A stretch of DNA of 64,000 bases, from the NCBI GenBank assembly GCA_951406725.2, contig OX597840.1, positions 3,844,001 to 3,908,000 on the forward strand, given 5' to 3'. The DNA is from Octopus vulgaris (lineage: Eukaryota). The notes beneath the pieces were generated by a model. It was given only the letters and a program-made list of their open reading frames with translations, made no database searches and had not been told where the DNA came from. Of this stretch, positions 27,767 to 33,373 are shown piece by piece; the stretch's first letter is position 1, and every line of letters starts with the position of its first letter. Position numbers and translations under genes: made by a program.

Positions 27767-27801
<35 letters not shown>

Positions 27802-27807
27802 CAACAA

Positions 27808-28698
27808 CAACGAACCATGATAAAACGATGGCAAGAAAAGCCCCTTCATGGTAAATACTGCACTAAACTAAACGCAAAAGAAATAGACAAAGAAAAATCC
27901 CAGCAATGGTTGAGAAGCTCAGGACTCAAAGCAGAAACAGAGGGATTTTTAATTGCAGCACAAAGACAAAGCCTCCCCACCAGAAATTACCAAAAACATG
28001 TAATGAAAAGAAATATTACAAGTAACTGCAGAATATGTGGAGATGGACAAGAAACAATAAATCATATTATCTCTAGCTGCCCAGTCCTGGCTAAGAAGGA
28101 ATATATTCACAGACATGACAGAGTTGGAACCTACATACATTGGAAGCTATGCCAACATTATGGAATAACAACAGAAAAAAGATGGTATAGGCACACACCA
28201 GAAAAGGTCACAGAAAACGAGAAAGCAACCATACTCTGGGATATGCCGATACACACAGATAGAGAAATTAAGGCCAACAGACCAGATATAGTTGTCAGAG
28301 ATCATGAAGAAAAAAATGCTTTTTAATTGATGTATCAATACCGGCAGATGACAACGTGTCTCTAAAAGAAATGGAGAAACTCTCAAAATACAAAGACCTG
28401 GAAATAGAGGTAACTAGAATGTGGAATCTGAAAACAGAAACAATTCCTATCATAGTAGGTGCATTAGGCATGATAAAAAAATATTCAGACAAATACATAA
28501 CAAAAACACCAGGACTTACAAACACATATAACATACAGAAAATTGCACTACTAGGCACTGCCCACATCCTACGCAGAACACTTTCCATACAATAATCATC
28601 AGAGCATCACAACAAATCACAGCACATACCCAAGGCACACAGAGCTGCGCTCGGTAGTGAAGTGAAAGCACGCTATAAAAATAAAAATAAAACTACTG
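27808..28698 (+). mobile_element. 5'-truncated R4/Dong-like non-LTR retrotransposon (CCHC knuckle plus restriction-like endonuclease) in (TAA)n
   Basis: CRIC...HIISSC, RHDRV, NRPDIVV, then after one frameshift in the A run near 28310 LIDVSIP...KEMEKLSKYKDL and IPIIVGALG; long AAT/AAC arrays on both flanks. Confidence 0.9.
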
Positions 28699-32687: not shown

Positions 32688-32803
32688 CTTGTTTTATTTA
32701 TATTTCCTGAGCGCCATACTAATACAATTGTTTGTTTGTTTTCCACCTGCCTTCGTCTTTTGTCTATTTTCATAAAGCTTCCCGTTATATATATATGTAT
32801 ATA

Positions 32804-33344
32804 TAGCGTGTGGCATGTATGTATAATGCCCTCTGGCATGTATGTATAATGCCCTCTATATATAAATTAATATGTTCAATAAGAAATAATTATTTTCGAA
32901 ATTTTTTCTCTTATGAGGTTTTCACGCTATCTACCTGACAATTTCTTGTTAAGTTTTCCTTATTAAGTAGTTGTCCTTAATTGCTAAATTTTTATTCCGA
33001 AAAACTTTTCCTTTCCCGAAATGCAATTCGTAAAAGTCGGCCATTTACCGGATGTAATATATGTAAACTCACCCATGTGCTTCGTTGATGTTGATCAGTT
33101 AGCTGATCGGCTTAAGCGAGACAGGGTCGTTTATGTATGATACATCCAGGCCTGCTGATGAATACGTAAGTATGAAATCACTGTGATACAGGTCTATATT
33201 TTTTAAATGTCTTACTTTGAAAAATTGCATTCGGTGGGATTAGTAATATTTTTGGTAGAAATGACTAATTGTCCCTCTTAGCGTGTGGCATGTATGTATA
33301 ATGCCCTCTGGCATGTATGTATAATGCCCTCTATATATAAATTA
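32804..33344 (+). mobile_element. Retrozyme-like element: 475-bp unit with 66-bp terminal direct repeat and internal HHR
   Basis: 32804-32869 equals 33279-33344; no ORF; TA-rich flanks. Confidence 0.75.
33148..33195 (+). ncRNA. Canonical type I hammerhead ribozyme
   Basis: AGGCCTG-CTGATGA-ATAC gtaa GTAT-GAAA-TCA ctg TGA-T-A-CAGGTCT: 7-bp stem I, 4-bp stem II with GNRA loop, closed stem III; predicted cut after 33188. Confidence 0.9.
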
Positions 33345-33373
33345 TATGTATATATATATATATATATATTCTT

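Follow-up and report, generated by a model that had tools for sequence, protein, structure and literature searches.

The insertion at positions 32804 to 33344 of the window, i.e. of the whole stretch of 64,000 nucleotides of Octopus vulgaris contig OX597840.1 that was analysed, is a truncated copy of a young, ORF-less hammerhead family, probably inserted by a borrowed Penelope-like element (PLE) enzyme copying a 475-nt RNA circle. PLE-type mobilisation of this family is well supported, because the anatomy of its insertions, with two fixed ends (S and L), inverted arms of the S+L type and a (TA)n target, is that of the PLE tail signature.

The window copy and its hammerhead family

The features assigned in the window are as follows, with the strand in brackets where one applies.

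32786..32803: left (TA)n target tract
32804..33344 (+): whole insertion, single arm of 1.14 units, 5′-truncated, 3′ end at the fixed S site
32804..33278 (+): one 475-nt unit, candidate RNA circle (family period 475-482)
32804..32869 (+): first copy of the 66-bp repeat; the TA of the 5′ junction is common with the flanking (TA)n
32812..32857 (+): internal tandem repeat of 2 × 23 nt with stem-loop fold, directly before the S site
32870..32989 (+): S-to-L stretch of about 120 nt, equivalent of the PLE tail
32986..32995 (+): L, the other fixed 3′ end of the family (unit positions 183-192) and putative reverse-transcription start site 2, internal here
32989..33264 (+): predicted long rod with the hammerhead as side branch, including the 33016/33223 pairing
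33148..33195 (+): type I hammerhead with near-palindromic stem III, predicted cut after 33188 (AUA)
33279..33344 (+): second copy of the 66-bp repeat, where the next turn begins
33333..33344 (+): S, the fixed 3′ end at about unit positions 55-70 and putative reverse-transcription start site 1
33345..33370: right (TA)n target tract
1127, 7163, 30501, 32655, 33380 (+): minimal PLE-type hammerheads
about 6231, 8297 (−): minimal PLE-type hammerheads

The sequence-only reading of this DNA had described a terminally redundant 475-nt unit, and most of what it had seen in the letters was found again. The 66-bp repeats are identical and extend to neither side, (TA)n is present on both flanks, the words at 33016 and 33223 are complementary, and the claimed lack of an ORF holds (longest ATG ORF in the circularised unit: 39 aa on the + strand, 43 aa on the − strand). 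Animal non-LTR retrozymes are defined by the lack of an ORF and a GC content under 45%; the GC content of the unit is 34%. The 66-bp redundancy itself results from a fixed start site and a chance stop and is not a family trait: the single arm of the window copy starts at S and stops after 1.14 turns on TA. With one hammerhead, this copy is likely an ordinary truncated member and a dead end, and where a 2026 preprint gives a criterion for an active copy, it asks for two units (10.64898/2026.07.22.740005), which the window copy does not have. Its S-to-L stretch contains a 16-mer kept in an older sister family and a stem-loop at unit positions 134-171. Seven minimal PLE-type hammerheads, belonging to at least three other repeat families, are also found in the window, and two of these hammerheads flank the insertion in the same (TA)n nest. 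At 27799-28326, there is a 175-aa open frame which by eye resembles the C-terminal part of a non-LTR retrotransposon protein.

The genome (2.8 Gb, 227 contigs) was searched for further copies. Among 1405 candidate places for the unit, scoring was confined to the best 40, which returned 30 loci at 97-100% identity. The exact 38-nt hammerhead word occurs 105 times genome-wide (control 0), the stem III word 665 times (control 29) and the conserved 16-mer 1530 times (control 2). The 475-nt unit is thus a young dispersed family with hundreds of hammerhead copies and not the single-copy sequence that the earlier reading had named as an argument against itself. Units run head-to-tail at 475-482 bp, with 2 to about 32 of them per array. 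A sister family of ~497 nt is older and roughly 75% identical to the young one; it retains the core of the hammerhead and a self-complementary stem III, and its stems I and II pair in spite of different sequences. Its stem II is longer and its two ends are the same (L174 980-1737; L162-L191), and intermediate forms between the young and the 497-nt family show 77-90% identity. The copy number of the 23-nt repeat slips to 1 or 3 in 10/55 loci, in no fixed order within loci.

The longest array (L192-L193, C1:64.64 Mb) consists of about 32 near-identical 481-bp units, bounded on one side by an inverted S arm and on the other by an L end, and looks like a nascent satellite. Among its 30 whole units, 9 are distinct; because the units are nearly identical and some variants are common to several of them, arrays can, as judged from these variants, grow after insertion. 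Long arrays were rejected as proof of many turns at one go since their units share variants. Contigs of the family were found in sequencing runs of three organism labels (X1 and X5 = A; X14 = B; X16 = C), and the family likely spans related species; no contig of these four runs covers the stretch from end to end. One contig of run X14, guessed to be RNA, carries eight A>G changes relative to window positions 32929-32979, and at 6/8 of these sites no G was present in about 155 genomic copies. Such changes would fit A-to-I editing of the hammerhead-sense strand, in this one contig and under another organism label.

The hammerhead had been read as canonical and fully paired. Our own scan confirmed a type I hammerhead at 33148-33195, composed of stem I (7 bp), CUGAUGA, stem II (4 bp), GAAA, stem III and the AUA triplet; full pairing did not stand, as stem III of the monomer consists of no more than the core pair and 3 bp, with 3 nt in the loop. 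The active monomer fold (−9.7 kcal/mol) loses against an alternative fold (−12.1 kcal/mol), while two copies of stem III give a 10-bp duplex (−10.1 kcal/mol). In these predicted folds, the stem III pairing is the layout of a dimer-type hammerhead, and hammerheads with such an unstable stem III have been described as acting in pairs (PMC4209133). Against the predicted cleavage counts that 8/9 Xenopus dimers reported in the 2026 preprint did not cleave in vitro (10.64898/2026.07.22.740005). Rfam at gathering threshold gave no match within the window, hammerhead included. The unit folds more stably than its shuffles both as a linear RNA (z −7.3; 0/100 as stable) and as a circle (z −8.8; 0/60 as stable; 67% paired by prediction), and the 66-nt hammerhead stretch alone does no better than shuffles (z −0.95). 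Selection on the RNA fold is likely because inherited variants keep predicted pairs more often (16/24) than one-locus variants (17/53; P 0.006).

Insertion ends, inverted arms and the probable Penelope-like machinery

For the analysis of ends, 75 insertions in 74 regions with 134 arms were used, six classes being corrected by hand from the printed ends. The first 40 loci had been picked for matching all 541 bases, so that arm lengths are biased upward. L006 and L016 have flank and haplotype in common and probably go back to a single insertion that was duplicated; each was kept in the counts, the latter as single-arm. The 5′ ends of the 134 arms are scattered over the unit, and a pile-up at the cut site was rejected with 1/134 ends within 3 nt of the cut (2 expected), in agreement with the earlier observation that the ends of the window copy do not coincide with the cut at 33188. 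The 3′ ends fall on two fixed sites, S at unit positions ~55-70 and L at 183-192, with about 120 nt between them; in nearly all cases listed, S and L ends give way to (TA)n where the element has a TA or AT. The circularly permuted copies predicted by the sequence-only reading were therefore found in part: the family is multi-copy with tandem arrays and variable 5′ ends, but random permutation was rejected, as 3′ ends keep to two fixed sites and an inverted second arm is present in most copies.

Head-to-head inverted insertions account for 59/75 cases, comprising 51 S+L, 1 L+L, 0 S+S and 7 with one odd end, and the remaining 16/75 are single-arm (9 S, 7 L). If ends were chosen independently, half would be mixed; the excess of S+L has a binomial P of 1e-14. 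A second set of loci, selected by motif words, contained 12 inverted insertions (9 S+L, 0 alike, 3 odd), which gives 71 in both sets pooled (60 S+L, 1 L+L, 0 S+S, 10 with one odd end). In the older 497-nt family, with loci picked by the L end, 13/30 are inverted, and their second arms are clearly S in 9, L in 0 and unclear or odd in 4 cases. At the head-to-head junctions, raw counts without chance baseline are 40/59 with overlap, 2 blunt and 17 with inserts; the arms are mostly joined over 1-6 shared bases, and a few overlap by 8-33 nt. AAAT precedes (TA)n at many ends of the unit, of the sister family and of a 781-aa PLE of the same genome, and is a possible priming signal common to the three. 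In the young family, the most frequent L end falls 3 nt short of such AAAT ends.

The second arm might also be a fold-back copy of the first cDNA, or the arms might have been homogenised by gene conversion, both without a second priming on RNA. Self-priming has been proposed for rotifer PLEs (PMC3846280), arm lengths would allow it in 28/47 of the S+L loci classed automatically, and the few 8-33-nt overlaps would suit it. In the other 19/47 loci, however, neither arm fits inside the other, which excludes fold-back as a general explanation of second arms. Gene conversion should leave private variants that are shared in part, and these are rare (5 vs 17 complete); both processes leave the other fixed end site of the second arm unexplained. 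Taken together, we regard this explanation as very improbable.

This anatomy is closely paralleled in EN+ PLEs, which have been described as 5′-truncated and forming partial tandems, with an inverted 5′ copy, a tail that often sits at one end only, and microsatellites as targets (PMC8557442, PMC3846280); AT-rich targets and two internal start sites are likewise common to both (PMC8557442, PMC3846280, PMC11167929). The purified anole PLE protein, a predicted dimer, cleaves AT-rich DNA on both strands, and the tail is delimited by the two internal RNA sites at which the enzyme starts (PMC11167929). The octopus tail is longer (about 120 nt vs 30-40 nt), the octopus unit has no ORF and its hammerhead is canonical instead of minimal. 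The one-ended tail, called 'often' present or 'optional' in the EN+ PLE papers as far as they describe it, is found in 60/61 octopus insertions with two standard ends. The family shares with non-autonomous PLEs a fixed 3′ end and 5′ truncation, partial tandems, inverted copies with a one-ended tail and an AT-rich target; a repeat flanking an RT-GIY-YIG ORF, as in an autonomous PLE, was not found.

The O. vulgaris genome itself contains many copies of an intact 781-aa ORF with RT and GIY-YIG domains and a CxxxC-type linker, which from its sequence is read as a Neptune-like PLE. The element has a 456-bp pLTR and two fixed ends 40 nt apart in (TA)n, and in the two inverted copies read (L138, L160), the tail is on one arm only. 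A young intact copy is located at L156 430-5672, further ones at L157, L158 and L160, and a second, upstream open frame of 330-380 aa was noticed. Our scan of its pLTR, made on shorter loci, found no hammerhead. The GIY-YIG search gave 6136 candidates, of which 150 were scored with 148 matches; 30 loci and 6 wider stretches were compared with the unit. None of the element ends in these 36 loci resembles the unit DNA, and the sole match of the unit is a neighbouring older copy in L133.

The earlier reading had treated retrozyme and PLE as alternatives, with a pLTR attached to a PLE ORF as the ordinary explanation. No attached PLE ORF was found, in favour of a retrozyme, whereas the copies show PLE insertion anatomy, so that this opposition could be kept only in part. 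That the unit is an ordinary pLTR stump of an autonomous PLE is extremely improbable. Ends, target and hammerhead type are indeed as at PLE termini (PMC8557442, PMC4209133), but the units adjoin directly at 475-482 bp for up to 32 turns, and PLE-like ORF fragments were present in only 5/74 young, 4/30 old and 0/29 further regions, in none of them inside a unit run. The 29 further regions came from a stem III word search for an ORF-bearing relative, in which 0 had an ORF match and 10 had no family match, the matches being family copies or unrelated chance occurrences.

Template of reverse transcription and proposed mechanism

The cut site is crossed by 111/134 arms, 29 of them crossing it twice or more, and the spacing is exact in 133/134 crossings; in the exception (L029), 1 nt is inserted next to the cut. 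Since arms read through the cut site, a single round of copying on a cleaved linear monomer, which the sequence-only reading had already discarded, is excluded. That reading had left the choice between a circle and a multimer. For a haplotype test, 16 family-polymorphic columns were used and the 23-nt repeat region was masked. Disagreement at these columns was 12/762 between arms and 17/891 between turns, compared with 43576/131499 (33%) between loci. Full concordance was obtained in 29/34 informative two-arm loci vs 9% in shuffles, the five exceptions differing at 1-2 columns, and 26 complete haplotypes were counted in 57 loci. Of the variants shared between loci, 167 occurrences extended to every copy of the locus and 20 to some copies only; private variants were present in every copy of their own locus in 17 cases, partially shared in 5 and confined to a single copy in 81. 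Each insertion would thus begin uniform, as expected of one unit copied repeatedly, and because arms and turns share one haplotype and most arms cross the cut site, these comparisons favour a monomer circle. Matching arms show one source unit and not one molecule, and tandem DNA gives the same joint as a circle. In the overall reading, a circular template appears likely. Copying of circles was already proposed in 2014 as origin of PLE tandems (PMC4209133).

The same PLE enzyme and start sites could also have been used with an uncleaved linear multimer, transcribed from uniform arrays, as template, in which case the hammerhead would matter little. This we consider unlikely, yet it keeps part of the choice left by the sequence-only reading alive. 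A linear multimer explains why the cut site is passed without scars, arrays that are nearly uniform and can still grow once inserted are present (C1:64.64 Mb; period-3 pattern in L037), and the number of 23-nt repeats, masked in the haplotype test, varies within 10/55 loci. Also, the anole PLE used mainly unprocessed RNA in vitro and did not need its own hammerhead (PMC11167929). On the other hand, a separate uniform source array would be required for each of the 26 haplotypes in the 57 loci, progeny could never outgrow the length of their source, and the differences within loci are mostly private (81 single-copy; 167 all-copy vs 20 partial) instead of inherited in order. That a sister family at 25% divergence has preserved the hammerhead core and the self-complementarity of stem III likewise speaks against a dispensable hammerhead.

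End-to-end jumps of the R2 type are expected to leave inexact joints and 5′ ends piled at the end of the template. An enzyme jumping from the 5′ to the 3′ end of a cleaved linear monomer at each turn would give the same one-haplotype result as a circle, and the 1-nt insertion in L029 would fit it, but with 133/134 crossings exact and only 1/134 5′ ends at the cut we judge such jumping very unlikely.

In the proposed mechanism, which retains the RNA circle as template, tandem loci would be transcribed, pairs of hammerheads would cut out monomers and a host ligase would close them to circles, the weak stem III keeping the monomer circle from cutting itself. The PLE reverse transcriptase-endonuclease would then break both strands of a (TA)n tract. 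From the observed pattern of ends, one broken end would prime at S and the other at L, at TA or AT of the RNA. Copying, as read from the arms, passes through the cut site, often goes beyond one turn and stops at scattered places; finally, two copies would be joined head to head, or one copy straight to the target, as the two classes of insertions suggest. The window copy would be the single-copy case, started at S, continued for 1.14 turns and joined on TA. A more specific version is tentative and in our estimate somewhat less probable than an even chance: an asymmetric enzyme dimer would hold a single RNA circle and prime the two ends of one DNA break, each at its own fixed site, whereupon two reverse transcriptases would roll with strand displacement until their products are joined head to head. 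In favour of two reverse transcriptases on one circle, both arms are longer than one turn in 11 loci.

Relation to known elements and significance

By every testable feature of its sequence, the family is to be placed among the animal non-LTR retrozymes; their circles were demonstrated in mussel, coral and axolotl, and PLEs were named as strong candidate helpers (PMC7229834, Cervera and de la Pena 2020). Common features are the canonical type I hammerhead, short low-GC tandem repeats without ORF, a strongly self-paired predicted circle and PLEs in the same genome (PMC7229834). The octopus unit is longer (475 nt vs about 170-400 nt) and its circle is a predicted one, while circles were shown for the described retrozymes (PMC7229834). 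To the sequence-only reading, no such family was known from cephalopods; its novelty is limited, as animal non-LTR retrozymes including a mollusc one are already described, and the cephalopod part stands in so far as the word 'cephalopod' is absent from the text consulted of PMC7229834 and no description of a cephalopod retrozyme was found in the literature searched. Repbase and Dfam may already hold the family. A giant squid paper lists 235 hammerhead matches, without analysis in the part concerned (PMC6962438). The consulted text of PMC7229834 also has nothing on fixed start sites, inverted arms or a choice of target.

Li, Clavereau and Pollet (2026) describe retrozymes as non-autonomous PLEs with unit lengths of 51-972 bp (10.64898/2026.07.22.740005), and our conclusion on the helper is the same. 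Their support, as presented in the preprint, is co-occurrence and pLTR similarity in 35 genomes without molluscs (10.64898/2026.07.22.740005), whereas ours is insertion anatomy, pLTR similarity being not found in the 36 GIY-YIG loci. With the non-autonomous PLEs of Chlamys (MRC1), the family has in common that ORF-less passengers form multicopy head-to-tail insertions (PMC8557442); these PLEs generally resemble their autonomous partners at the 3′ end and belong to a clade without canonical hammerheads, as far as described there (PMC8557442). Plant LTR retrozymes are defined by a type III hammerhead in LTRs and a 4-bp target duplication, neither of which applies here, as the topology is type I and the length of the terminal repeat varies between copies.

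The value of these data lies in the family's record of the insertion reaction and not in the window copy. They bear on PLE insertion, on the origin of tandems and inverted arms, on the nature of the tail and on what moves animal retrozymes, for which the step from circle to DNA remains a proposal in earlier papers. Where earlier work described, the family gives counts, namely a nearly strict rule of one S and one L end and a single haplotype for each insertion; the literature searched yielded no such count, whether of end pairing or of haplotype uniformity. With its short, recent and well-assembled copies, the family could also serve in vitro work with the intact local PLE protein, as a 475-nt substrate on which the start sites are already mapped. 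If the reading with an asymmetric dimer on one circle is true, the tail would necessarily mark two-ended priming, circles would be the source of pLTRs and tandems, and the family would represent a fossil record of the whole PLE insertion reaction.
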